DNA from: a virus
Taxonomy: Duplodnaviria; Heunggongvirae; Uroviricota; Caudoviricetes
Direction: 5' to 3' (one strand)
DNA: 11,051 nucleotides
IMG/VR virus record: IMGVR_UViG_2671180296_000007
Span: 1-11,051 of that record
The notes under the pieces were generated by a model that did not search any database, had not been told where the DNA came from, and saw nothing but the letters and a program-made list of their open reading frames with translations. Positions within the stretch are counted from its first letter, which is position 1. Each line of letters begins with the position of its first letter. Positions 1-11,051 of the stretch are shown one piece after another. The position numbers and the translations under genes were made by a program.

Positions 1-1242
1 ATGGCGAGAAAAACACCCCCATTAACCACAGTGCAGATCAAAGCAGCCAGACCAGCGCAAAAGGAGTACACCCTACAGGACGGCGGTGGGCTTTTTCTCC
101 TGGTAAAACCGTCCGGATCAAAACTCTGGCGATTTTCCTACTACCGACCATCGGACAAAAAAAGAATATTGCTGAGTTTTGGATCGCTTGAAGATGTTTC
201 CCTGGCTGATGCCAGAAAACGCCGTAGCGAGTACAGGACGTTAATCAGTGCCGGAACTGACCCGCAGGACCATGAGAAGAAAAAACGAGAGGCAGAGGCC
301 CGAAGACAAGGGAACACGTTCGAAAATGTGGCGGCGGCATGGTACCAGGTGAAAATCAGCCAGAATCTGGCCCCCAACACGATTAAAGACATCTGGCGTT
401 CGCTGGATAAATATGTATTCCCGTTCATCGGCAACACGCCAATAGATACCCTCACTGCCCGAAGGTTCGTTGAGGTGCTTACACCCATCAAGGAGCGCGG
501 CAACCTGGAAACACTCAAGCGGGTTTTACAGCGCGTTAATGAGGTAATGGATTACGCCGCCAACAGTGGGCTGATTGATGCCAATCCGGCTATGAATGTG
601 CGTAAGGCGTTCCCCTCCCCTGTAAAAAAACATATGCCAACAATCCGCCCCGAACAGTTGCCGGAGCTTATGCAGGCTTTATCCGTATCAGCAACAGAAC
701 GGCAGACCAGATTACTGATTGAATGGCAGCTACTGACTGTAACCCGTCCGGTTGAAGCATCGTCAGCACGCTGGGAAGAAATCGACATGGACGCGCAACA
801 ATGGACGATCCCCGCCGGACGCATGAAGATGCGGCGTGATCACGTTATCCCGCTTTGTAGTCAGGCTATGGCGGTACTGGAGGCCATGAAGCCAATCAGC
901 CACCACCGCGAGCACGTTTTCCCTAGCCTGAAAGACCCACGGCAGCCTATGAACAGCCAGACCGCCAACGCAGCATTGCGGCGAATGGGATTCGCTGGCG
1001 TGCTGGTGTCTCATGGATTACGCGCCATATTCAGCACAGCAGCGAACGAGGAAGGATTCGAGCCGGACGTAATCGAGGCCGCACTCGCACACGTGGACAC
1101 GAACGAGGTAAGGCGAGCATATAACCGAAGTAACTACCTGGAAAAGCGCGTGGTGCTTATGCGCTGGTGGGGGGAATTTGTAGAGGCCGCAGCAACCGGA
1201 GTGACCATAGCCAGTGGTAAAAGGGGTATCCGTGCCGTGTAA
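1..1242 (+). CDS. int: Tyrosine recombinase / phage integrase, P4-type
   Basis: Full ORF of 413 aa. The N-terminus (KEYTLQDGGGLFLLVKPSGSKLWRFSYY) is typical of the P4-integrase N-terminal domain, and the C-terminal half has the recombinase-like HGLRAIFST region and a tyrosine near the C-terminus (RRAYNRSNYLEKR). Recognised from family knowledge, not searched. Confidence 0.9.
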   Translation: MARKTPPLTTVQIKAARPAQKEYTLQDGGGLFLLVKPSGSKLWRFSYYRPSDKKRILLSFGSLEDVSLADARKRRSEYRTLISAGTDPQDHEKKKREAEARRQGNTFENVAAAWYQVKISQNLAPNTIKDIWRSLDKYVFPFIGNTPIDTLTARRFVEVLTPIKERGNLETLKRVLQRVNEVMDYAANSGLIDANPAMNVRKAFPSPVKKHMPTIRPEQLPELMQALSVSATERQTRLLIEWQLLTVTRPVEASSARWEEIDMDAQQWTIPAGRMKMRRDHVIPLCSQAMAVLEAMKPISHHREHVFPSLKDPRQPMNSQTANAALRRMGFAGVLVSHGLRAIFSTAANEEGFEPDVIEAALAHVDTNEVRRAYNRSNYLEKRVVLMRWWGEFVEAAATGVTIASGKRGIRAV

Positions 1243-1343
1243 CTGTACAAAAAACCAGTAAAAGCGATGCAAACCATGCTAAACCATCGTATAATCACCA
1301 TATACAGAGAGACCCGACTCTTGAAATTCAAGGAGTTATCCGA

Positions 1344-1586
1344 GTGTTTTTCAATGAAAAGGTATCCCCTGCCTATGGTGAAGGCCTTCAACTGGCCTTA
1401 ATGGCAAATCGTGAATTCTGGTCAACGTACGATCCGGAAGACAAATCAACTGCCCCCACAAAACACGAGGTAGTCAGTTTTTTGCGCTCGCGTGGCGCAT
1501 CGAAAAATCTGGCTGAAAGTATCGACAAGGTGCTGAGGCCCACCAGCCTTAAATGCGGTGGGCGACCTAAGAAGTGGAAACGGTAA
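1344..1586 (+). CDS. Hypothetical small protein (80 aa from GTG, or 61 aa from the ATG at 1401)
   Basis: ORF preceded by AGGAG (1331-1335) 8 nt before GTG 1344 and followed by a hairpin plus T-run. Basic C-terminal tail GGRPKKWKR. No family recognised. Confidence 0.35.
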   Translation: MFFNEKVSPAYGEGLQLALMANREFWSTYDPEDKSTAPTKHEVVSFLRSRGASKNLAESIDKVLRPTSLKCGGRPKKWKR

Positions 1587-1591
1587 TCACA

Positions 1592-1621
1592 ATAGCGGCC
1601 CCTTGCGGTCGCTATTTTTTT
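1592..1621 (+). terminator. Rho-independent terminator-like hairpin plus T-run
   Basis: Imperfect stem atagcggcc / ggtcgctat immediately followed by tttttttt, 6 nt after the stop of the 1344-1586 ORF. Confidence 0.4.
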
Positions 1622-1657
1622 GCAGAAAGAAAAGCGTAATCAATAAGATAAAAAACA

Positions 1658-1691
1658 GTGGGTACCGTTTTAAAACGGTGGGTACTGTTTT
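1658..1691. promoter_or_regulatory. Putative operator: perfect 16-bp palindrome within two direct 14-bp repeats
   Basis: ACCGTTTTAAAACGGT (1664-1679) is a perfect palindrome. It sits inside tandem copies GTGGGTACCGTTTT (1658-1671) and GTGGGTACTGTTTT (1678-1691), about 70 bp upstream of the alpA start. Confidence 0.4.
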
Positions 1692-1756
1692 TCCCGCCCT
1701 GCCCTGTTTTACCGTATTTATCACCGGAATACGCCGGATTAACGAGGTAAAACATA

Positions 1757-1963
1757 GTGGAAACAATCAGAAAAATTCTTACCCGTCAGGAAGTAAAAAA
1801 TATTCTGCGCATCAAGGCAGACAGTTCGCTACAGGACATGATCAACGCCGGAAAATTCCCGAAAGGCTTCAAAATCGGTCTGCGCCGTGTTGGCTGGTAT
1901 GAAGATGAAGTGCTGGCCTGGCTGAAAGAGCGCGAGGAAGAAGCGCGCGGAACGGCTGCGTAA
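1757..1963 (+). CDS. alpA: AlpA-family DNA-binding regulator (phage transcriptional regulator / excisionase-like)
   Basis: 68 aa with GTG start. Pattern LTRQEV..IL.I...S..DMINAGKFPKGFKIG.RRVGWYEDEVLAWL fits the AlpA signature. Position directly after int is the canonical P4/PICI arrangement. Confidence 0.8.
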   Translation: METIRKILTRQEVKNILRIKADSSLQDMINAGKFPKGFKIGLRRVGWYEDEVLAWLKEREEEARGTAA

Positions 1964-2110
1964 TGGTGTGAGGCGTAACGCGATGAACATAACAAAAAGC
2001 GCCCCGTTGCCGGAGCGCCCTTGCGAACAATTAACCTGCTGCGAAAAAAATGGATCAGTGCAGTGGAATTATATCAACCGTGTGACGAAGCGCCACAATT
2101 GCCGGATAAC

Positions 2111-2142
2111 AGGCAAAACAAAGGCCACCCGCTACGGTGGCC
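2111..2142 (-). terminator. Putative rho-independent terminator for the minus-strand small gene
   Basis: Stem ggccacc (2123-2129) / ggtggcc (2136-2142) with a 6-nt loop. On the minus strand it is followed by TTTGTTTTGCCT. Confidence 0.4.
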
Positions 2143-2245
2143 CCTCGACACAAGCTACACGTTATCCCCAACGCATGAGCATAGCCAACAATGCCACATT
2201 TGCGGCTGGTGGGCAAAGCGTAACCGGAAAAAAATTCCGGTGGAG

Positions 2246-2425
2246 CTACTCCTGCTCTTTGGCCTTGCGGCGCTGGCGGCGTTTGATCTCGCCGCGCATG
2301 GCTGCACTTATAAACTGCCCTGTACTTTCGCCTTCTTCTTTCACGTTTTCCATGCCTTCAATAATTTCATGGGCAATACGTGCAGTTACAGATTGTGATT
2401 TTGCATTCTTTGGACCTGTTGCCAT
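2246..2425 (-). CDS. Small basic-tailed protein (59 aa), putative transcriptional regulator of the divergent switch
   Basis: Start set at the internal ATG (2425) because a perfect AAGGAG lies 5 nt upstream on the minus strand. Sequence MATGPKNAKSQSVTARIAHEIIEG...KRRQRRKAKEQE. Divergent from the Icd-like operon with shared repeated operators. Function inferred from context only. Confidence 0.5.
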   Translation of the reverse strand: MATGPKNAKSQSVTARIAHEIIEGMENVKEEGESTGQFISAAMRGEIKRRQRRKAKEQE

Positions 2426-2445
2426 GTCTAACTCCTTATGTTTTT

Positions 2446-2540
2446 GGTGTAAGACAATATACACGAAAAAAAATTATTTTGAAGGGTTGACGTGTAAGAC
2501 ACTATTATTTTACATTGTGTCTTACACCTTGTTGATACAA
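2446..2540. promoter_or_regulatory. Divergent promoter/operator region with three copies of TGTAAGACAC
   Basis: Direct copies at 2447-2456 and 2492-2502; inverted copy at 2517-2527, giving a perfect 11-bp inverted repeat with 14-bp spacer. Candidate -35 TTGACG (2487-2492) and -10 TACATT (2511-2516) for the + operon. Candidate minus-strand -35 TTCAAA / -10 TATATT overlap the operator copy at 2447-2456. Confidence 0.45.
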
Positions 2541-2624
2541 GGTGCAGAAACGACGAAACCCGGCAGTGCGCTAACACTAACCGGGCTTCTAACCACCAAC
2601 GATAACGAGAGTATCGAGGTAGCT

Positions 2625-3239
2625 ATGTTAAATCATACCATACACCCGCAAGGGCGGGACTCGCACAACCTGAATAAATATATCTGGCGTTTTATCGCCC
2701 TGAGCACAGCACAACCGCGCGTGATTACCATTGAGGCCACCAGCGAACAGGAAGCACGCCAGAAAAACCAGTTGATCGCCATTGCCAGCCAGGGCTATGA
2801 TTTATCCGCACCAGCAAAATCTGGTGCCGGGATTGGCGTCCTGGTATTTAACGAAGCGCACAACACGCGCCCTGCGTGTTTTTTTGTGCCGGATAGTCAC
2901 ACCTTATCAATGGTGGGCTGTATGGGGGCGGAGCAATCCGCGCCGGGTTCTTCGTTAACCGGTTACGCCAACCCTGTACAGTCTACCGCCAGCGAAATTG
3001 GCGTTTCCTGCGGTGGGTTTATTAAACCTAACGAAGAGGCTGCCAACATGGCTACTATCCCTGCCCTCGTACATTCTCAAACTGCCTTTATCTGGCGCTT
3101 TATCATCTTTGGCGCGTCAGAATCCCAAATCATCCACGTAACCGCCTGGACGGAACGCGAAGCGCGTAGTCGTTGCCCGTCCGGTTGTGTTGCTGTATTC
3201 GCCGCCCGTATTCGTCAGGAGGTGCGCCATGTGCAATAA
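2625..3239 (+). CDS. Icd-like (host cell division inhibitor-like) protein with two copies of the Icd motif
   Basis: The track ORF 1968-3239 is trimmed to ATG 2625 (GAGG 6 nt upstream), because the upstream part overlaps the minus-strand gene and the promoter region. Two copies of the motif: YIWRFIALSTAQPRVITIEATSEQEAR (N-terminal) and FIWRFIIFGASESQIIHVTAWTEREAR (C-terminal). Family assignment is from memory of the Icd-like signature. Confidence 0.5.
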   Translation: MLNHTIHPQGRDSHNLNKYIWRFIALSTAQPRVITIEATSEQEARQKNQLIAIASQGYDLSAPAKSGAGIGVLVFNEAHNTRPACFFVPDSHTLSMVGCMGAEQSAPGSSLTGYANPVQSTASEIGVSCGGFIKPNEEAANMATIPALVHSQTAFIWRFIIFGASESQIIHVTAWTEREARSRCPSGCVAVFAARIRQEVRHVQ

Positions 3240-3699
3240 CACCCGTCCGGACGCAGCCGCCGAAGCTATCAGAACGCTGATGCACGCGCTGATTAATATT
3301 TCTGTTATCGCAGACATGGCGCATAAACACGCCACCAGCGAAACAGAATATGCCGGGGCTTTCGTTCCTCACTCACTGGCTGTTATGCAATTTAGTGCTG
3401 ATATGGCACTGAATGAGGCTAAAGCCATCCTGATTGCTGATTGTGAAAATGGGGGGGTTATGCGTGATGATCGTTTTAATGCCCTGAAACAGGAATTTTC
3501 CGGCGTATCTGATGATGCGAGTGATGCGCTTTCGTCAATATCCGAACTGATAAGAGCGGCCTTTTTCTTACTTGGCACGAAAGAAAATAAAACAACGGGG
3601 TTTGATGTACTAAATATCACCGCTGATTATGCGGAATATGTGGCAGAAGTCGATTTAAGAAAAATCCCGAATTGTCGCGGCATTAATAACGCTTCTTGA
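3229..3699 (+). CDS. Hypothetical protein (156 aa)
   Basis: ATG 3229 preceded by AGGAGG (3217-3222) with a 6-nt spacer; overlaps the end of the upstream gene by 11 nt, suggesting one operon. Acidic, alanine-rich. No family recognised. Confidence 0.6.
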   Translation: MCNNTRPDAAAEAIRTLMHALINISVIADMAHKHATSETEYAGAFVPHSLAVMQFSADMALNEAKAILIADCENGGVMRDDRFNALKQEFSGVSDDASDALSSISELIRAAFFLLGTKENKTTGFDVLNITADYAEYVAEVDLRKIPNCRGINNAS

Positions 3700-3777
3700 G
3701 CCTGTAATAAATGAATCGCAGGAAATAGAAACATTGCACGACAGATATAAAGAACAGCACACCGGAGAATAAAAATA

Positions 3778-4077
3778 ATGAAACTTAAATATTCTGGCTT
3801 AACTGCCAGTGGCAACACTCACCCTAAATTTACGCGCGGTGATATTTACCGCGACCAGTACGGCGGCACGGTAATGATTAAGGGCGTGGCGGGACGGTGC
3901 GTAACTTACCGCCGTGAAGGTTACGAATATGATTGCGTGATGCCTGTTTATCAGTTCCGGCGTGATTTTTCTCTGGTACAGGCAGCGCCCCGCAGTAAAC
4001 CAACCAGCAGGGAGAAAGCACGCGCCAATATTCAGAAGATGAAAACCATGATTAAAGGATTCAGGGGTAAAAAATGA
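3778..4077 (+). CDS. Hypothetical small protein (99 aa), translationally coupled to the primase
   Basis: GGAG 3762-3765 upstream of ATG 3778. The stop overlaps the primase start in an ATGA motif (4074-4077). Confidence 0.6.
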   Translation: MKLKYSGLTASGNTHPKFTRGDIYRDQYGGTVMIKGVAGRCVTYRREGYEYDCVMPVYQFRRDFSLVQAAPRSKPTSREKARANIQKMKTMIKGFRGKK

Positions 4078-5828
4078 AACTGGCACCGAACGTAAAACAG
4101 CAGTCACGCGGCATAAAACACAAAGAAACAGAAGTCATTATTTTTGCGGGTAGTGATGCCTGGTCACACGCGAAACAATGGCAGGAACATGATGCGCGTA
4201 TGGCCGGAGATAATGAGCCTCCTGTGTGGCTTGGGGAGCAGCAGCTATCCGAACTGGATAATCTGCAAATTGTGCCGGAAGGCCGAAAATCAGCACGCAT
4301 ATACAGGGCCGGATATCTTGCGCCAGTAATGATAAAGGCGATTGGCCAGAAGCTGGCGGCGGCAGGCGTACAGGATGCAAATTTTTACCCTGATGGTATG
4401 CACGGTCAGAAGGTGGAGAACTGGAGCGAATATCTGGCCCGTGAGCGCCAGAATCTTTCTGATGGTCTGGTCATTGAGCTTCCGGTAATGCAAAAGGCGC
4501 AACTTTCGCAGATGGCGGACAGTGAGCGCGCACAGATGCTTGCTGGTCGATTTGATGGCGTTTGTGTGCATCCGGAAAGTGAAATCGTTCACGTATGGCG
4601 CGGCGGGGTATGGTGTCCGGTCAGCACAATGGAACTTAGCCGCGAAATGGTGGCGATCTATTCAGAGCACAGGGCCACTTTCAGCAAGCGCGTAATCAAT
4701 AACGCCGTGGAAGCGTTAAAAGTTATTGCCGAACCAATGGGCGAGCCGTCCGGCGATTTGTTGCCGTTCGCCAATGGTGCGCTTGACCTGAAAACGGGGG
4801 AATTTTCCCCGCACACGCCGGAGAACTGGATCACCACGCACAACGGCATTGAGTACACGCCACCAGCACCTGGGGAGAACATCCGCGATAACGCGCCAAA
4901 CTTTCATAAATGGCTTGAGCACGCAGCCGGAAAAGACCCGCGCAAGATGATGCGTATATGTGCCGCGCTGTACATGATTATGGCGAACCGGTACGACTGG
5001 CAGATGTTTATTGAGGCCACCGGAGACGGCGGGAGCGGTAAAAGTACATTCACGCACATAGCCAGCCTTCTGGCAGGGAAACAGAACACGGTGAGCGCGG
5101 AGATGACATCGCTTGATGATGCTGGTGGACGTGCGCAGGTTGTCGGGAGTCGTCTTATCGTCCTGGCTGACCAGCCGAAATATACAGGCGAAGGAACGGG
5201 CATCAAGAAAATCACGGGCGGCGACCCCGTGGAAATAAACCCGAAATATGAGAAGCGTTTTACGGCGGTAATCAGGGCGGTGGTGCTGGCTACCAACAAT
5301 AACCCGATGATATTCACCGAACGGGCCGGAGGTGTGTCACGTCGTCGCGTAATTTTCCGTTTCGACAATATCGTCAGTGAGGCCGAAAAAGACAGGGAGC
5401 TACCGGAAAAGATTGCGGCTGAAATCCCTGTCATTATCCGCCGATTGCTGGCGAACTTTACCGACCCTGAGAAGGCACGGGCTTTACTACTGGAACAGCG
5501 TGACGGTGATGAAGCACTGGCAATAAAGCAACAGACGGATCCGGTTATTGAGTTTTGCCAGTTCCTGAATTTTCTGGAGGAAGCGCGCGGCCTGATGATG
5601 GGTGGCGGTGGTGATTCAGTGAAGTACACGACCAGGAACAGCCTTTATCGCGTCTATCTGGCGTTTATGGCGTACGCAGGCAGGAGCAAACCGCTAAACG
5701 TAAATGACTTTGGCAAGGCTATGAAGCCAGCCGCGAAAGTTTACGGACATGAATATATTACGCGGAAAGTTAAGGGAGTAACGCAGACTAACGCAATAAC
5801 AACAGACGAGTGCGACGCGTTTTTATAA
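4074..5828 (+). CDS. DNA primase/helicase, P4-alpha C-terminal type (D5_N-like domain plus SF3 P-loop NTPase)
   Basis: 584 aa. Walker A GDGGSGKST (about 5018-5046), Walker B-like LIVLADQP, downstream NNNP motif. Overall resemblance to phage/plasmid primase P4-family C-terminal domain proteins (PICI pri-rep type). Confidence 0.85.
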   Translation: MKLAPNVKQQSRGIKHKETEVIIFAGSDAWSHAKQWQEHDARMAGDNEPPVWLGEQQLSELDNLQIVPEGRKSARIYRAGYLAPVMIKAIGQKLAAAGVQDANFYPDGMHGQKVENWSEYLARERQNLSDGLVIELPVMQKAQLSQMADSERAQMLAGRFDGVCVHPESEIVHVWRGGVWCPVSTMELSREMVAIYSEHRATFSKRVINNAVEALKVIAEPMGEPSGDLLPFANGALDLKTGEFSPHTPENWITTHNGIEYTPPAPGENIRDNAPNFHKWLEHAAGKDPRKMMRICAALYMIMANRYDWQMFIEATGDGGSGKSTFTHIASLLAGKQNTVSAEMTSLDDAGGRAQVVGSRLIVLADQPKYTGEGTGIKKITGGDPVEINPKYEKRFTAVIRAVVLATNNNPMIFTERAGGVSRRRVIFRFDNIVSEAEKDRELPEKIAAEIPVIIRRLLANFTDPEKARALLLEQRDGDEALAIKQQTDPVIEFCQFLNFLEEARGLMMGGGGDSVKYTTRNSLYRVYLAFMAYAGRSKPLNVNDFGKAMKPAAKVYGHEYITRKVKGVTQTNAITTDECDAFL

Positions 5829-5839
5829 TTTTTTGTAAT

Positions 5840-6070
5840 TGCTGTCTACCCTGTCTACCTGAGTAAAGAAAAATACATTTAATTCAGTGCATTAAGTTAT
5901 GTAGATAGCCTTTTTTTACTATCTACCCACTATCTACCCTCTCTACCTGATTTTACCTGAATCAGACAGGGAGGTAGACACGGGGTAGATAGTGGATAAA
6001 AGCACTCTACCCCGCTGAAAGCCGCGCCATTACTGGCATGAGGGCCACTAAGGTAGATAAGGTAGACAAG
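5840..6070. repeat. Iteron array / putative origin of replication
   Basis: Hexamer core TCTACC on + at 5845, 5854, 5922, 5933, 5942 and 6006. Its complement GGTAGA at 5973, 5984, 6052 and 6061. Arms form an imperfect inverted repeat (ccactatctacc 5927-5938 versus ggtagatagtgg 5984-5995). AT-rich stretch 5872-5920 and a DnaA-box-like TTATCCACT (complement of 5991-5999). Located immediately downstream of the primase gene. Confidence 0.6.
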
Positions 6071-6116
6071 GGGAGGCACAACTCAAAACTTTTTAAACGA
6101 GGGGGTAAAAATAAAT

Positions 6117-6395
6117 ATGCACACTTCAGGGAAATTTAATAAATCACTCAAAAAACGCAGAGACAGAACAGAACCGAAATATCGCGCGTTAGACATGACA
6201 GAGCACGCTTTAAAGGTGGCAATCAGAACGATAGACCGCCACGCGGGGGAAGGATACGCGAAAGCACATCCCGACCTGATAAGCGCATTCATGACCACGA
6301 CGGCGGCAAATTTTGCCACGCTGACAGAGCGGGAGATTGCCGAAGCGGAACAGGTAACAACAATCAACGTTAAAACCGGAGAGGTGGAATCATGA
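6117..6395 (+). CDS. Hypothetical protein (92 aa)
   Basis: GAGGGGG upstream of ATG 6117. Stop overlaps the ssb start (ATGA at 6392-6395). No family recognised. Confidence 0.55.
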   Translation: MHTSGKFNKSLKKRRDRTEPKYRALDMTEHALKVAIRTIDRHAGEGYAKAHPDLISAFMTTTAANFATLTEREIAEAEQVTTINVKTGEVES

Positions 6396-6814
6396 CAGCA
6401 CAGATAGCCGCTTACGGGCGGCTGGTGGACGACCCGCAGGTAAAACAGACCAGCAAGGGCACACCGATGACGCTGGCGCGTATGGCGGTCCCCCTTCCGT
6501 GCAGCCAGGCAGATGACGGAACGGCGACGATGTGGTTATCCGTCCTGGCATTTGGCAGACAGGCCGAAGCACTGGAAAGGCACCGCAAGGGTGAACTCCT
6601 GAGCGTGGCGGGTAACATGCAGATCAGCCAGTGGACTGGGCAGAACGGAGAAACGCGGCAGGGCTGGCAGGTTATCGCAGACAGTGTAATCAGTGCGCGA
6701 ACGGCGCGACTGGGCGGCAAAAAAGGTCAACAGGGCCAGGCTACTGACGCGCTGAACAGGGCAAAACAACAGGCGGGGAATGATGATCCGTACGGGGATA
6801 ACATACCGTTTTAA
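6392..6814 (+). CDS. ssb: Single-stranded DNA-binding protein (SSB-like OB fold)
   Basis: 140 aa. Pattern GRLVDDPQVKQT..G...LARMAV...W..VLAFGRQAE......KGELLSVAG.....W....G..R follows the SSB OB-fold signature. Gly/Gln-rich linker and C-terminal DDPYGDNIPF, resembling the acidic ...DDDIPF tip of E. coli SSB. Confidence 0.8.
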   Translation: MTAQIAAYGRLVDDPQVKQTSKGTPMTLARMAVPLPCSQADDGTATMWLSVLAFGRQAEALERHRKGELLSVAGNMQISQWTGQNGETRQGWQVIADSVISARTARLGGKKGQQGQATDALNRAKQQAGNDDPYGDNIPF

Positions 6815-6829
6815 GCGACGAGTGACAGA

Positions 6830-6852
6830 AGCCGGAGCAATCCGGCTTTTTT
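6830..6852 (+). terminator. Rho-independent terminator
   Basis: Stem agccgga / tccggct with a GCAA loop followed by TTTTTT, 16 nt after the ssb stop. Confidence 0.6.
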
Positions 6853-6900
6853 ACGGGTCCTCCTAGCGGGGTGGGCCTGAACACGGGGCGGGAGGCGCGG
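6853..6900 (+). other. Degenerate cos-like sequence (cosQ-like ACGGGTCCT plus mutated cosN)
   Basis: acgggtcctcctagcggggtgggcctgaacacggggcgggaggcgcgg parallels the intact cos at 9294-9343 (acgggtcctttccggcatatggacctgttacggggcggcgacctcgcgcg). The 12-nt cohesive-end core is altered (GGGCGGGAGGCG versus GGGCGGCGACCT). Confidence 0.4.
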
Positions 6901-7032
6901 AAAAAAGCGCATTTTTGTGATTTTATCGTCATCATCATCATGAGCGTAATTTATTGTTTTTAATTGTTTTGATGCAAAAAAGATGATGTTTGTGGTTAAT
7001 TTTTGTTCGACATCTTTGCAGGCAGATAAAAA

Positions 7033-7069
7033 AGCCCGATAAGGTCAGAGGTGGCTTATCGGGCTTTTG
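7033..7069. terminator. Bidirectional terminator-like hairpin
   Basis: Stem agcccgataag (7033-7043) / cttatcgggct (7055-7065) flanked by an A-run upstream and a T-run downstream. Confidence 0.5.
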
Positions 7070-7100
7070 CATATGAGGCTTTTTGGTGCACTGACACACA

Positions 7101-7198
7101 TGATCGGGATCATCATTTCATAATTTGCAACACAACTCAACATCATTGCATAAAATGCAATCATGATTATAATCATAACTGGATGAACATCCAGTTAT
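7101..7198 (+). promoter_or_regulatory. Near-consensus sigma70-like promoter with nested palindromic operators upstream of the capsid operon
   Basis: -35 TTGCAT (7146-7151), 16-bp spacer, -10 TATAAT (7168-7173). Palindromes: TGATCggGATCA (7101-7112), TTGCATaaaATGCAA (7146-7160), ATGATTATAATCAT (7163-7176), and a perfect 11-2-11 ATAACTGGATGaaCATCCAGTTAT (7175-7198) over the predicted transcription start. Confidence 0.5.
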
Positions 7199-7229
7199 GA
7201 TTTTTTAAGTCAAAGAGGAATTTCTTACT

Positions 7230-7436
7230 ATGGCTGAAGAGAAAAAAGGCGGTGTTTCGGTGTACATAAGCCCCGAAATCGTGGAGGTGCTCAAGCAGCG
7301 CCACAAAAAAAACTATGAGGCTGGCGTGGCGGCTGGACTGGATCCGCTGATGACGCCGGAGCCGTCGATAGGTTCACTTGTACGCTCTTATTTACTTGCG
7401 GCGCTTGGGATGCATAAAAATTATGGGGGTGAATAA
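7230..7436 (+). CDS. Hypothetical small protein (68 aa), first gene of the capsid operon
   Basis: AAGAGGAA (7213-7220) upstream of ATG 7230. Stop overlaps the capsid gene start (TAATG). No family recognised. Confidence 0.55.
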   Translation: MAEEKKGGVSVYISPEIVEVLKQRHKKNYEAGVAAGLDPLMTPEPSIGSLVRSYLLAALGMHKNYGGE

Positions 7437-8491
7437 TGGCAGGCAAAGCAACGGCACTTAACACTAACCAGCTTTTCGCGTACCTGAATCGCGGGGATAT
7501 TGCGGAATTTAAATTCAGTCCGCTGTTTACCACGCTGTTTTTCCCGAACGTGGCGACATTCAACACCCAAAGCATCATGCTGGACACCCTGGACATTGAA
7601 GAGGTTACGATGTCGGCGTTTTGTTCGCCTATGGTGGGTAGTCAGGTCCAGCGCGATAAAGGGTACGAAACCAGCACGATTAAACCTGGATACATGAAGC
7701 CGAAGCACGAAATCGATCCAACGAAAACCATCATGCGTATGGCTGGAGAAGATCCGGCACAGCTTAATGACCCAACCTATCGCCGTATGCGCCTGATTAC
7801 TGGCAACATGCGCCGCCAGATAAACGCGATTAAAGCGCGCGTGGAATGGCTGGCGGTGAATGCGGTAACGACCGGAAAAAACATCATTGAGGGCGAAGGC
7901 ATAGAACGCTATGAAATCGACTGGAAGATACCGGAAAAAAACATCATAGAGCAGGCCAAAGGCCGTAAATGGTCCGAGCAGGACAAAGAAACCCACGATC
8001 CAATCTATGATATCGAGCTTTATGCGGATCAAGCAGGTTGCCCCTCCAACGTCATGATCATGGGCGCTGAGGTATGGCGAACGTTACGCAGCTTTAAAAA
8101 ATTCCGCGAACTGTACGATCTTTCCCGTGGTTCAGAGTCCTCCGCAGAGCTGGCCTGTAAAAACCTGGGCGAAGTGGTGAGCTTTAAAGGATATCTGGGC
8201 GATATTGCCCTTATCGTCTATTCCGGCAAATACACTGACAGCGACGGCACCGAAAAATATTTCCTTGAGCCTGATTTGCTGGTCCTGGGCAACACCAACA
8301 ATAAAGGGCTGGTGGCCTATGGTGCGATTATGGATCAGGAAGCGGTCAGAACGGGCGCAACGCAAAACATGTTTTACCCGAAAAACTGGATTGAGGACGG
8401 CGATCCGGCGATTGAGTACGTGCAGACGCACAGCGCACCGCAGCCGGTTCCGGCAGATATTCGCAAATTTGTTACCGTCAAAATTGGTTAA
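7436..8491 (+). CDS. Major capsid protein, lambda gpE family
   Basis: 351 aa. Matches to lambda E recalled from memory: FKFSPLFTTLFF (lambda FKFDPLFLRLFF), PGYMKPKHEI (PGYVKPKHEV), DPTYRRMR (DPAYRRRR), SFKGYLGDIALIVYSGKY (SYKGMYGDVAIVVYSGQY), YPKNW, and full-length collinearity. GGGGG RBS 6 nt upstream. Confidence 0.9.
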   Translation: MAGKATALNTNQLFAYLNRGDIAEFKFSPLFTTLFFPNVATFNTQSIMLDTLDIEEVTMSAFCSPMVGSQVQRDKGYETSTIKPGYMKPKHEIDPTKTIMRMAGEDPAQLNDPTYRRMRLITGNMRRQINAIKARVEWLAVNAVTTGKNIIEGEGIERYEIDWKIPEKNIIEQAKGRKWSEQDKETHDPIYDIELYADQAGCPSNVMIMGAEVWRTLRSFKKFRELYDLSRGSESSAELACKNLGEVVSFKGYLGDIALIVYSGKYTDSDGTEKYFLEPDLLVLGNTNNKGLVAYGAIMDQEAVRTGATQNMFYPKNWIEDGDPAIEYVQTHSAPQPVPADIRKFVTVKIG

Positions 8492-8502
8492 CGGGGGATT
8501 CT

Positions 8503-8838
8503 ATGGACACTCCATACATTGAGTTATTTGCAGGCAGTCAGCAGGTTGCCACGACGCTGGTACATTTTGCCGCTGATGCTGGCGTTATTCAGGAATTTAC
8601 CCCGCTGATGCTGGCGGACAATGGCGAATTTAAGCCGTGGGATGGTCAGGAATCTGGCAAGGCTGTTTATCTGACGGCGTATCCCGTGGACACGTCAACG
8701 CAGAAATCAGCACAGTGTTACAAGACGGGGATATTCAATATTGCCGCCGTTAACTGGCCTGAGAGCGTCGACACCGACGCGAAAAAATGTGCCGCCTTTG
8801 CGGGTTCTGGTGTATCTGTTCAGCCGCTGGCGCGATAA
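8503..8838 (+). CDS. Head decoration protein, lambda gpD family
   Basis: 111 aa. TPLMLADNGEFKPWDG and C-terminal YKTGIFNIAAVNWPESVDTDAKKCAAFAGSGVSV parallel lambda D (TPLMLDTSSRKLVAWDG ... [35 protein letters not shown]). Confidence 0.8.
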   Translation: MDTPYIELFAGSQQVATTLVHFAADAGVIQEFTPLMLADNGEFKPWDGQESGKAVYLTAYPVDTSTQKSAQCYKTGIFNIAAVNWPESVDTDAKKCAAFAGSGVSVQPLAR

Positions 8839-8851
8839 GCAGGGGGGAACG

Positions 8852-9265
8852 ATGGCAACGAATGAAAGTATCATGGCGCTACCGCTGGCGAGTAAATTTA
8901 AAGCTGAAGCGCGGGCAATGGCTGACAGATGTCTATCAACCTACGAAGCTATATATCAACTTAACAAACTGGAAGAACAGGACAAGCCGCGCGCTGATGC
9001 GATTATGTCGCTTCATGAATCTGACGACTATCAGCCGCTGTTACGTGCAATGGCAAACGTGCCTTGTATTGATGTTGATACGGCTAAAAACATCCTGAAC
9101 ATGACCATAGAACAGGAACGCCAGAAGGTTGCACCAGAGCTTACCGCAGCCTTTGAAAACTTTATGGACATGCACAGCCCACAAGCCGTATCAGCTGGCA
9201 TGGCATACGATGGCAGAAACCCGGGCGATGACGGCGACATTGATCGCATACTGAAAACCATCTGA
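8852..9265 (+). CDS. Hypothetical acidic protein (137 aa), last gene before cos
   Basis: The track ORF 8741-9265 is trimmed to ATG 8852, preceded by AGGGGGG. It is followed by a terminator and then cos. No family recognised. Confidence 0.55.
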   Translation: MATNESIMALPLASKFKAEARAMADRCLSTYEAIYQLNKLEEQDKPRADAIMSLHESDDYQPLLRAMANVPCIDVDTAKNILNMTIEQERQKVAPELTAAFENFMDMHSPQAVSAGMAYDGRNPGDDGDIDRILKTI

Positions 9266-9271
9266 GACAAG

Positions 9272-9293
9272 GCCGGAGAAATCCGGCTTTTTT
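9272..9293 (+). terminator. Rho-independent terminator
   Basis: Stem gccgga / tccggc with a GAAA loop followed by TTTTTT. Nearly identical to the terminator at 6830-6852. Confidence 0.6.
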
Positions 9294-9500
9294 GCGGGTC
9301 CTTTCCGGCATATGGACCTGTTACGGGGCGGCGACCTCGCGCGTTTTCACTATTTATGAAAATTTTTCGGGATCCATGTCCGGTTTCTCTGCAAGTTAAC
9401 CATATGAAAAATATAAAAACATGCTTTCCATGAACCGGACATGCGCAAAAAAACAGACACTAAAACCGGACATCGTACCCGTTAACCGGAAGTGTGCAAA
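9294..9500 (+). other. Lambda-type cos site, forward orientation (cosQ-like, cosN, candidate cosB)
   Basis: cosQ-like GGGTCCTTTCCGG (9296-9308). GTTACG then the 12-nt cohesive-end sequence GGGCGGCGACCT (9326-9337). Downstream TTTTCACTATTTATGAAAATTTTTCGG closely matches the lambda left end (CGCGGGTTTTCGCTATTTATGAAAATTTTCCGG). Candidate terminase-binding repeats AACCGGACAT at 9433, 9464 and 9484, with an inverted copy at 9374-9384. Confidence 0.8.
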
Positions 9501-9699
9501 AATCACACGCATTGCTGCGCGTGATTAACAATTTATCGGCTTTACTGTTCTGTATAGGCTGGGTGGCGTCATGCCGTAGCCGTTCTCCGTGCCAGCATGG
9601 AATAATCCGTAGTTACAGAGCGGTAAAGTTAAAAATCACTTTCTGTTACGCCATCAAATACGCGATACAACAACCATGTGTTTTTACAAAACCATTTGA

Positions 9700-9898
9700 T
9701 ATCATTGAATTTTTTCACATTAATGACATCAAAATACATCGTAAGGTTGTTGTATTTATTTTATTTTATTTTTACCTTACTTATCAATTAGATATACCAA
9801 ACAATTAAACAACAACCACCCCATCAAAAAATCTCATAAATAGCGAAAAACCGCGAGGTCGCCGCCCCGTAACGGGCCATAATTCCTGGAAGGACCCG
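9700..9898 (-). other. Second lambda-type cos site, inverted orientation (cosQ-like, cosN, different candidate cosB)
   Basis: On the minus strand: cgggtccttccagg ... gttacgGGGCGGCGACCTcgcggtttttcgctatttatga. The cosN core is the complement of 9856-9873. The inward-facing flank carries GGTTGTTGT-type repeats (minus-strand reading), not AACCGGACAT. Confidence 0.7.
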
Positions 9899-9931
9899 AC
9901 GACACCAGACTATCAGAACGATGGGGGCACA

Positions 9932-10213
9932 ATGACAGAAGCCGAACTACTGCGATTAATCCGTCGCGTTGCCGGAATCAGCCAGCAGGCTGACGAACAG
10001 GCCACGCAGCCGGACAGCGTGACCGCAGAAAATTATGTTCGTGTGGTTGCTGAGGTGATGCACCGTGATGGTATCCAGCTTAATGATGCGGATATGCGCG
10101 ACATACGGATCCGCGTTCTTGAAATGCTGGCCTACCGTCGCCGGATACAGACGTACAGGGAAAAAGCCAAAATAACGTACCAGTGGAAGAAGCCGGAGCG
10201 GTTACGGCGGTAA
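9932..10213 (+). CDS. Hypothetical protein (93 aa)
   Basis: GGGGG 5 nt upstream of ATG 9932. First ORF downstream of the cos region. No family recognised. Confidence 0.55.
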   Translation: MTEAELLRLIRRVAGISQQADEQATQPDSVTAENYVRVVAEVMHRDGIQLNDADMRDIRIRVLEMLAYRRRIQTYREKAKITYQWKKPERLRR

Positions 10214-10233
10214 CTTGCTGAAGTTAAAGCATA

Positions 10234-10332
10234 ATGCAAATTTGCACTCTGGCCTAACCCGTTAATATTTCAGCAAAGTGCAAATTTGCGTTCTGTAGCT
10301 GGTGGCTGGCAGAATGTAAATTTACATTCTGG
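10234..10332. repeat. Three tandem about 19-bp repeats, each containing a 12-bp palindrome
   Basis: aTGCAAATTTGCActctgg (10234-10252), gTGCAAATTTGCgttctg (10279-10296), aTGTAAATTTACAttctgg (10314-10332). They lie in a convergent intergenic region between the stops of the flanking genes. Confidence 0.6.
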
Positions 10333-10336
10333 TGAT

Positions 10337-10636
10337 TTAATCATCTGATTTACCCAGCCCGTACCGGATTACCGTACAGTGAGCGCCATCGCTACCGATA
10401 CGCACATCAAAGCGGGGTTCGCGCACTTTCACGCGGTACAGGATCCCATCATTTACCATAGCGTTTAACGTTCGTCGGGTTGCCTCTATGTGATATCGCT
10501 GATATTCGGAACCATAGAGCAGCACTGTCACACCACGAACATCAAAAGGCGGATCTCCGGCCTCCACCCGCACCCAATCGCGATATTCAGGTTTGTAAAG
10601 TTCAAGAATCTGTTTTTTGTGCCTGGTCATTCTCAT
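10337..10636 (-). CDS. Hypothetical protein (99 aa)
   Basis: The track ORF is trimmed to ATG 10636 (MRMTRHKK...), which has AAGGAA 7 nt upstream on the minus strand. The longer N-terminal extension is hydrophobic and low-complexity and lacks an RBS. No family recognised. Confidence 0.5.
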   Translation of the reverse strand: MRMTRHKKQILELYKPEYRDWVRVEAGDPPFDVRGVTVLLYGSEYQRYHIEATRRTLNAMVNDGILYRVKVREPRFDVRIGSDGAHCTVIRYGLGKSDD

Positions 10637-10742
10637 GTGTGATTCCTTATTGTGGGACAGTACTGTCATACAATAAGCTATGAGGGAAATTATCAAAAGA
10701 ACGGAAACCAACCATTCAGATTTAACAGGTATCAATGGGATT

Positions 10743-11051
10743 ATGCTTATGGTGCATGATGACAAAGCGGAAGAACTGGAAGCGAAAGGTTTATGGCGAC
10801 GGGCGGCTAATCGCTGGGGTGAGTTACTGAAACAGGCGGCAAGTGATGAAGCGCGTCAGTATGTAACGGAACGACGAACGGCATGTATCCGGAAGGCAAC
10901 CATAACCCGGGAACCGGAAAGAGACCTGATTTGTGCCATAAGAACCGCCGCCACAAAAACACTAACGGACATGGGGATCGACCTGAAAAAAGAAGATCCA
11001 CTGCGGGGCATTCAGCACGGACATACAAAGCGGGATAAACGCAGGAAGTAA
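10743..11051 (+). CDS. PerC-family transcriptional regulator-like protein
   Basis: N-terminal AEELEAKGLWRRAANRWGELL recalls the conserved PerC/Pch-family motif, from memory and not searched. Start is uncertain (10680, 10743 or 10749); 10743 is chosen to leave room for a divergent promoter. The perfect palindrome GACAGTACTGTC (10656-10667) lies in the intergenic region. Confidence 0.45.
   Translation: MLMVHDDKAEELEAKGLWRRAANRWGELLKQAASDEARQYVTERRTACIRKATITREPERDLICAIRTAATKTLTDMGIDLKKEDPLRGIQHGHTKRDKRRK

Follow-up and report, generated by a model that had tools for sequence, protein, structure and literature searches.

Phage-inducible chromosomal islands (PICIs) of Gram-negative bacteria have their replication origin immediately 3' of the initiator gene, where an AT-rich region is bordered by sets of iterons (Fillol-Salom et al. 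2018, ISME J, PMC6092414). For the Escherichia coli island EcCICFT073, a thermosensitive plasmid was tested in pri-ori, pri-delta-ori and delta-pri-ori versions and was maintained only with pri and ori together; this organisation was stated in 2018 to be common to no other known replicon (PMC6092414). The pathogenicity islands of Staphylococcus aureus (SaPIs) and other Gram-positive PICIs (e.g. SaPIbov1) also place short iterons around an AT-rich region immediately 3' of the initiator gene (PMC6092414; compared here by description), but their iteron sequences are different and Pri and Rep are often separate genes. In the satellite phage P4, the alpha protein binds the origin repeats via a winged-helix domain and then carries out unwinding and priming (PMC4234260, PMC4889955). 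Here we analyse an 11,051-nt stretch of viral DNA (IMG/VR record IMGVR_UViG_2671180296_000007, positions 1 to 11,051; referred to as the window), which is a Gram-negative PICI by its gene set: int, alpA, pri, a single-stranded DNA-binding protein (SSB), capsid, decoration, cosN and perC. Our subject is the iteron array just downstream of pri. We are highly confident that 5836–6097 serves an EcCICFT073-type PICI as its origin of vegetative replication and is recognised by the island's own initiator, Pri.

The array stands out by its repeat content. Exact TCTACC is present in 11 copies in the window, against 2.5 expected for the whole of it, and none of 200 dinucleotide-preserving shuffles attained that number. 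Ten of the copies fall inside 222 nt (5845–6066), the sole other one being at 2982. As an earlier reading made from the letters alone (the sequence-only reading) had proposed, at least six copies are on one strand and four on the other: six on the + strand (5845, 5854, 5922, 5933, 5942 and 6006) and four on the - strand (5973, 5984, 6052 and 6061). A search with TRTCTACCY allowing up to one mismatch found an extra degenerate copy on the - strand at 5899–5907, giving 11 iterons; the copy at 6006 has an exact core and two mismatches in its flanks. In order, the array reads > > (AT-rich) < > > > to the left of centre and < < > (block) < < to the right. Three inverted arm pairs (5843–5864 with 6047–6068, 5901–5938 with 5973–6010, and 5938–5952 with 5960–5974) share a centre at about 5956, forming a pseudo-dyad. 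GC content is 24% at 5861–5898 and 25% at 5861–5919, versus 50% across the window. The imperfect inverted arms placed around 5955–5970 and the adjacent AT-rich stretch, both also proposed earlier, are therefore real features of the region, and the functional unit probably runs from ~5836 to ~6097, slightly wider than the 5840–6070 first delimited.

Inverted repeats of this kind could in principle reflect a structured RNA, a terminator hairpin or a chance cluster. The single strand does fold much better than shuffles (z=-5.1), and Rfam at a permissive E-value returned sub-threshold miRNA-precursor matches across 5887–6027. However, these matches lie far below the gathering scores, belong to eukaryotic hairpin families and reflect the inverted repeats themselves. 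A scan of the array found no terminator, conservation falls on the 6-nt cores and not on paired positions, with spacers varying freely, and the shuffles rule out chance. We consider all three explanations extremely improbable.

Direct homology with the CFT073 island supports the origin reading (L009 in our locus set; NC_004431.1:1377749-1389210). The gap downstream of pri is 288 nt long in both elements and 94% identical. Every one of the 11 iteron positions is kept, as are the AT-rich stretch, the conserved block and the A/T tract; the few point differences include a G-to-T change in iteron 3 of the window. The two pri genes are 92% identical at the DNA level, and window 3662–9372 (pri, SSB and the capsid module) is 92–93% identical to the island. 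For window 1–1990 (integrase to alpA) no DNA match was found in the CFT073 island, so the integration module differs. We also mapped the published cloning primers. A homology arm from the supplement matches window 5818–5876 at 56 of 59 bases, the delta-ori construct ends at the window equivalent of 5832, and the ori construct reaches ~6139. The ori deleted from EcCICFT073 thus corresponds to window 5833 to ~6139 and contains the whole array. Deletion of this homologue abolished Pri-dependent maintenance (PMC6092414), which supports the proposal that the array is the cognate origin of the initiator encoded upstream; the replication assay suggested along with that proposal has in effect already been done on the 94%-identical EcCICFT073 allele. 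The layout agrees as well, since iterons 1–2 and 3–6 flank the 24%-GC stretch at 5861–5898 and the first iteron starts at 5843, immediately 3' of pri, which ends at 5828. The origin reading has been known since 2018, and the array in the window is an unremarkable example of that type.

The genes on either side of the array have the same orientation, the ribosome-binding region just downstream of it is perfectly conserved, and plasmid iteron-binding initiators often autoregulate too. The repeats might accordingly be mainly transcriptional operators through which Pri or another regulator controls the hyp-ssb-capsid genes or autoregulates pri, with a minor or absent role in replication. We regard this as very improbable. 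The scan that found no terminator also found no sigma-70-like promoter on the + strand, and the one promoter-like site on the - strand is no more than shuffles give. The same layout is annotated as a replication origin in P4, and the Pri-dependent maintenance of the plasmid was impaired once the homologous segment had been removed (PMC6092414).

The initiator is of the type expected for a P4-like origin, with an SF3 helicase (superfamily 3) and a C-terminal winged-helix domain homologous to that of alpha. Residues 138–579 of Pri align with residues 321–762 of P4 alpha at 40% identity over 443 residues (E=7e-114), and the D5_N/SF3 helicase core is shared with the staphylococcal primase-helicase 7OLA (E=6e-15). 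Pri would thus be a P4-alpha-like, D5-type hexameric helicase that carries its own origin-binding domain. Its N-terminal domain has a Toprim-like fold only, without a DxD motif; Pfam gave no match to this module at E-values up to 10, and a profile comparison detected no similarity to the P4 alpha primase domain. P4 alpha has a DnaG-type primase domain of 320 residues, whereas the corresponding module of Pri has 137 residues and is unrelated in sequence. Pri is annotated as a ‘primase’ but may not be one. Of the primase/helicase that the sequence-only reading saw upstream of the array, the helicase and origin-binding parts match P4 alpha, while the ‘primase’ label is not established.

We then compared the array with the P4 origin, taking the type-1 repeat positions from the GenBank annotation (P4 is L010) and expressing them as start-to-start spacings in the orientation of alpha. 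The P4 ori consists of two direct type-1 repeats, ~37 nt of AT-rich DNA, one inverted repeat and three direct ones (> 10 > 44 < 21 > 11 > 10 >). The left half of the window's array (> 9 > 46 < 22 > 11 > 9 >) has the same arrangement: it equals the six P4 repeats in copy number and orientation, with near-equal spacing (9/46/22/11/9 vs 10/44/21/11/10). Iterons 1–2 correspond to the first two P4 repeats and iterons 4–6 to the three direct ones, and an AT-rich stretch of equal length and position is found in P4 ori and in the Serratia, Morganella and KppS-Ant elements described below. The right half (< 11 < 22 > 46 < 9 < then AAAACTTTTT) resembles one unit of P4 crr (< > > > 44 < 9 < then AAAAAAAACTTTTTT), with a ..CTGAAA.. 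spacer, a terminal inverted pair and an A/T tract, and the place of the crr units in P4, just downstream of alpha, parallels that of the array with respect to pri. The octamer form TGTnnACC is common to both elements, but the iteron core is TGTCTACC in the window and TGTTCACC in P4. Other differences are that the P4-type origin is bipartite, needing both ori and a distant crr in cis, with the two 4.5 kb apart in P4 and the crr unit duplicated, whereas in the window both iteron groups are fused in ~260 nt with no distant crr; that P4 type-2 repeats are absent from the window; and that the window element is a PICI, without P4 psu, sid or delta. A modest addition, new here, is that these alignments connect the origins of Gram-negative PICIs with P4 ori and crr.

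A consequence of this comparison is that the array might be two joined elements with no single symmetric assembly site. The left half (5843–5948) would correspond to P4 ori and act as the true origin, and the right half (5972–6097) would correspond to one P4 crr unit and act as an enhancer in cis. In favour of this, each copy of the left half has its counterpart in P4 ori, and the right half aligns with crr units, the ..CTGAAA.. spacer and the A/T tract among the matching parts. The 4.5-kb separation of ori and crr in P4 speaks for it too, as does the variation among relatives. In L071, L072, L074, L075, L085 and L086 the halves are reversed within the 330 nt past the helicase stop codon, with a crr-like part, ~70 nt and then an ori-like part, which suggests that they are separable modules. 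In E. coli FDAARGOS_943 (L005:2630-2834) a natural deletion of ~85 nt has removed five central iterons and left > > (AT) < > (block) < <, that is, the two outer ‘2+1’ modules without the centre. On the other hand, the halves abut with near-perfect dyad symmetry in most relatives, which a single head-to-head assembly fits equally well, and the iteron orientations of the crr unit are not exactly those of the window's right half. We therefore think this division of labour rather unlikely. A related idea, which we put forward tentatively and hold to be somewhat less doubtful, is that the PICI origin is a compact fusion of the bipartite P4 origin, made of an ori-like half and one crr-like unit. The halves would be modules that can be placed adjacent, swapped or 4.5 kb apart, and the crr-like half would carry a second recognition element, made up of the CTGAAAGCCGCGCCATTACTG block and the A4CT5 tract. 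Such an element is common to the iteron-specificity classes and would therefore have a reader other than the origin-binding domain, for which a host factor, or a step in priming or loading, could be considered.

The CTGAAAGCCGCGCCATTACTG block occupies 6013–6050. In an alignment of seven E. coli/Shigella sequences that are 69–99% identical in the origin region, 64% of its columns are invariant, compared with 21% of other spacer columns (p=1e-5). Its core is also found in L085, an element of the TGTTCAC class, and P4 crr spacers carry CTGAAA at the equivalent position. A consensus hairpin was looked for in the window form of the block and none was found. In L071-87 the block is replaced by a hairpin-forming sequence with three compensatory pairs and weak overall support, a pattern that would be equally expected from a palindromic protein-binding site. 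Morganella, Serratia, L085 and both P4 crr units have a counterpart of the window's A/T tract after their last iteron pair.

Comparison among relatives shows a phylogenetic footprint on the iteron cores. In the same seven-sequence alignment, 83% of iteron-core columns are invariant versus 21% of spacer columns (Fisher p=6e-16). Scanning IMG/VR with an alignment query gave 80 loci, and a single-protein query of a genome collection gave three. GGTAGA is the commonest hexamer in the 330 nt past the helicase stop codon in 70 of the 80 IMG/VR loci, and 43 unique origins of the TCTACC class have a modal iteron number of 11 (range 8–13) and the consensus YTNTCTACCY. Relatives with helicases 41–64% identical to Pri mostly retain the layout, some of them with other cores (TGTTCACC, TGTTCAT or TGTATACC). 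Downstream of helicases as little as 41–53% identical, Serratia shows the full pattern of 11–12 copies with TGTTCAC, Morganella with TGTTCAT and the induced element vB_KppS-Ant with TGTTCACC; relatives with the TGTTCACC core are those of Serratia, KppS-Ant and L085. S1-KEN and KppS-Ant have an additional inverted iteron at the position of the window's central spacer. In L089-L091 (IMG/VR; 300 nt past the helicase stop codon) the core is TGTATACC, one base from TGTCTACC, and the array is apparently mirrored with respect to the helicase gene. A similar origin-binding domain is present in L084 and L088, where a terminator and no iterons lie downstream.

Iteron core and origin-binding-domain class change in step. 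In the domain alignment, the domains of TCTACC elements are 84–98% identical to that of the window, and elements with TGTTCA(C/T), P4 alpha included, form a second class that is 32–34% identical to it. This comparison of cores across related islands, which the sequence-only reading had suggested as a check, gives comparative support to its idea of a replicon specificity determined by the iterons, with few independent switches to draw on. Loci L079-87 keep TCTACC with an intermediate, clearly diverged domain. These loci and the window's domain class have the segment FGKA.K.AAK.Y..EY.TR..KG..QTN in common, which we infer to be a candidate specificity determinant.

A DnaA-box-like site within the array had also been proposed. 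TTATCCACT is indeed present at 5991–5999 on the - strand and matches the DnaA box TTATCCACA at eight of nine positions, but it is neither conserved nor enriched. The window holds five one-mismatch matches to TTATCCACA, against 2.4 expected, a number equalled in 23 of 200 shuffles. TTATCCACT does not match the relaxed consensus TTWTNCACA. It is kept in the clade at least 94% identical in this region, CFT073 included, and occurs in 17 of the 43 unique related origins, no commoner than by chance, none of these 17 meeting TTWTNCACA; it was not found in relatives 69–74% identical in the region or in the TGTTCA-class origins examined. We also noticed that the string GTGGATAAAAG, with a DnaA-like box, occurs both inside the window's array (5992–6002) and in P4, on the outer edge of crr (L010, ~4279–4289), where the box is a perfect TTATCCACA. 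This is probably a coincidence, since the positions relative to the iterons differ.

Many iteron plasmids (pSC101, R6K, P1 and F type) have clustered short direct repeats beside an AT-rich region, with the initiator gene adjacent. By analogy, the TTATCCACT box beside the iterons could make this a host-DnaA-dependent origin, and the near-match inside the array, its retention in the closest clade and the perfect P4 box in a similar string would fit. The lack of enrichment, the failure to match TTWTNCACA, the presence in a minority of related origins and the different placement in P4 all argue against it, and a conserved TTWTNCACA box, as in DnaA-dependent iteron origins, was not found. To our knowledge P4 replication is itself independent of DnaA. 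Furthermore, in iteron plasmids a Rep-family binder recruits DnaB, whereas Pri provides the helicase itself and carries a winged-helix domain, and those with DnaA boxes have purely direct arrays, unlike the opposed arrays seen here. Dependence on DnaA is thus very unlikely, slightly more so than the operator explanation, and TTATCCACT is probably incidental and not to be counted as part of the origin.

Returning to the reading of 5836–6097 as a Pri-dependent origin, we propose that, after induction and excision, the origin-binding domains of Pri would bind the 8–9-bp iterons (YTNTCTACCY). The opposed arrays would gather helicase subunits on either side of 5861–5898 and so melt this 24%-GC stretch. 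The helicase would then unwind the DNA and the island's SSB would coat the single strands, with primers coming from the Toprim-like module of Pri or from host DnaG and host Pol III replicating the circle. Iteron core and origin-binding-domain class together would decide which initiator fires which origin. In this scheme we infer the binding of these iterons by Pri, the site where melting starts, the source of primers and whether replication is bidirectional.

Several points weigh against this reading or limit it. The experimental support comes from the 94%-identical EcCICFT073 homologue and not from this exact sequence. Iteron 3 is TGTAGATA in the window and GGTAGA in 41 of the 43 unique relatives, a window-specific G-to-T change at its first base. 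Binding of TCTACC by a PICI Pri is presumed from its homology with P4 alpha, at only ~33% identity in the origin-binding domain. The association of core and domain rests on few independent switches (~3–4 classes), and L079-87 keep TCTACC with a clearly diverged domain. Finally, the conserved block at 6013–6050 is left unexplained by the origin model.

Table 1. Coordinates of the proposed origin, its parts and the surrounding genes in the window.
Feature	Position	Strand	Remarks
Tyrosine integrase (int)	1–1242	+	
alpA (AlpA)	1757–1963	+	
Ash/Icd-like open reading frame (ORF), 423 aa	1968–3239	+	Ash-family match and Icd-like match
DUF4222	3778–4077	+	
pri	4074–5828	+	584 aa; D5_N, SF3 helicase (DUF5906), C-terminal Pox_D5 winged-helix; Pfam and NCBIfam matches
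Pri N-terminal module (~residues 1–130)	4074–4463	+	Toprim-like fold; putative primase
Origin-binding winged-helix codons (residues 488–579)	5535–5810	+	phmmer match to P4 alpha domain PDB 1KA8, E=6.9e-7
Intergenic region with array	5829–6116		288 nt
Proposed origin, whole	5836–6097		11 iterons, AT-rich stretch, conserved block, terminal A/T tract; within the equivalent of the EcCICFT073 delta-ori deletion
Iterons 1, 2 (TGTCTACCC, TGTCTACCT)	5843–5860	+	Direct, abutting, 9-nt spacing; cores invariant in the seven-sequence alignment
AT-rich spacer, candidate DNA-unwinding element	5861–5898		24% GC; role suggested by composition and position
Iteron 3	5899–5907	-	Inverted, degenerate (TATCTACAt); T-run 5908–5919 next
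Iterons 4–6 (TATCTACCC, TATCTACCC, TCTCTACCT)	5920–5948	+	Direct, 11- and 9-nt spacing
Central spacer, pseudo-dyad ~5956	5949–5971		Small non-conserved hairpin (inverted repeat I6); decayed 12th iteron position
Iterons 7, 8	5972–5991	-	Inverted, 11-nt spacing
Iteron 9 (ACTCTACCC)	6004–6012	+	Lone direct copy
Non-iteron block, core CTGAAAGCCGCGCCATTACTG	6013–6050		38 nt, 61% GC, between iteron 9 and the last inverted pair
Iterons 10, 11	6051–6068	-	Inverted, abutting; mirror iterons 1 and 2 (repeat I2)
A/T tract AAAACTTTTTAAA	6085–6097		After the last iteron pair; invariant in E. coli relatives
Small ORF	6117–6395	+	
Island-encoded SSB	6392–6814	+	Pfam SSB, E=4.9e-15
Lambda-E-type capsid protein	7436–8491	+	
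D-type decoration protein	8503–8838	+	
Lambda-type cosN core GGGCGGCGACCTCG, two exact copies	9326–9339; 9854–9867	+; -	Inverted orientation
PerC (perC)	10680 onward	+	

The surrounding genes fit the PICI assignment (Table 1). All the genes listed are on the + strand, so that int, alpA and pri share one direction, and they are accompanied by a phage-type cos and accessory genes. The SSB is likely an accessory replication factor, with a presumed role in origin function. The 423-aa Ash/Icd-like ORF may be a fusion or partly spurious; in related islands, several short genes, some on the opposite strand, occupy the equivalent place. The two exact cosN cores agree with the two cos candidates reported for EcCICFT073, and a one-mismatch copy of GGGCGGCGACCTCG lies inside pri (5216–5229). 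We considered the array as a packaging site and rejected this, the cosN copies being at 9326 and 9854 instead. We likewise rejected a capsid-forming PICI (cf-PICI), as comparison with CFT073 places the element with the classical EcCICFT073 type. A 501-nt query across the array matched 563 of 5,426 complete E. coli genomes, always in the chromosome, and some genomes hold up to four copies of the array region, which is unannotated in RefSeq records. At least 80% of the whole window is covered in only two of the 5,426 genomes; the island is a mosaic.

As an origin, the window adds nothing new, since the 2018 study both defined the class and tested an allele nearly identical to this one. Its practical value lies in the annotation of a region found in those 563 E. 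coli genomes. The comparative additions are modest, namely the link to P4 ori/crr, a precise map of the 11–12 iterons and a flag on the doubtful ‘primase’ annotation. The cores found, no fewer than four with the form TGTnnAC(C/T), pair with domain classes and provide raw material for predicting cross-replication or incompatibility among co-resident satellites. We know of no explanation so far for the function of crr in P4. If the PICI origin is indeed the bipartite P4 origin in a compact, fused form, the function of crr could be worked out tractably in these small islands, and the 2018 statement that their origin organisation is unique among replicons would be corrected.
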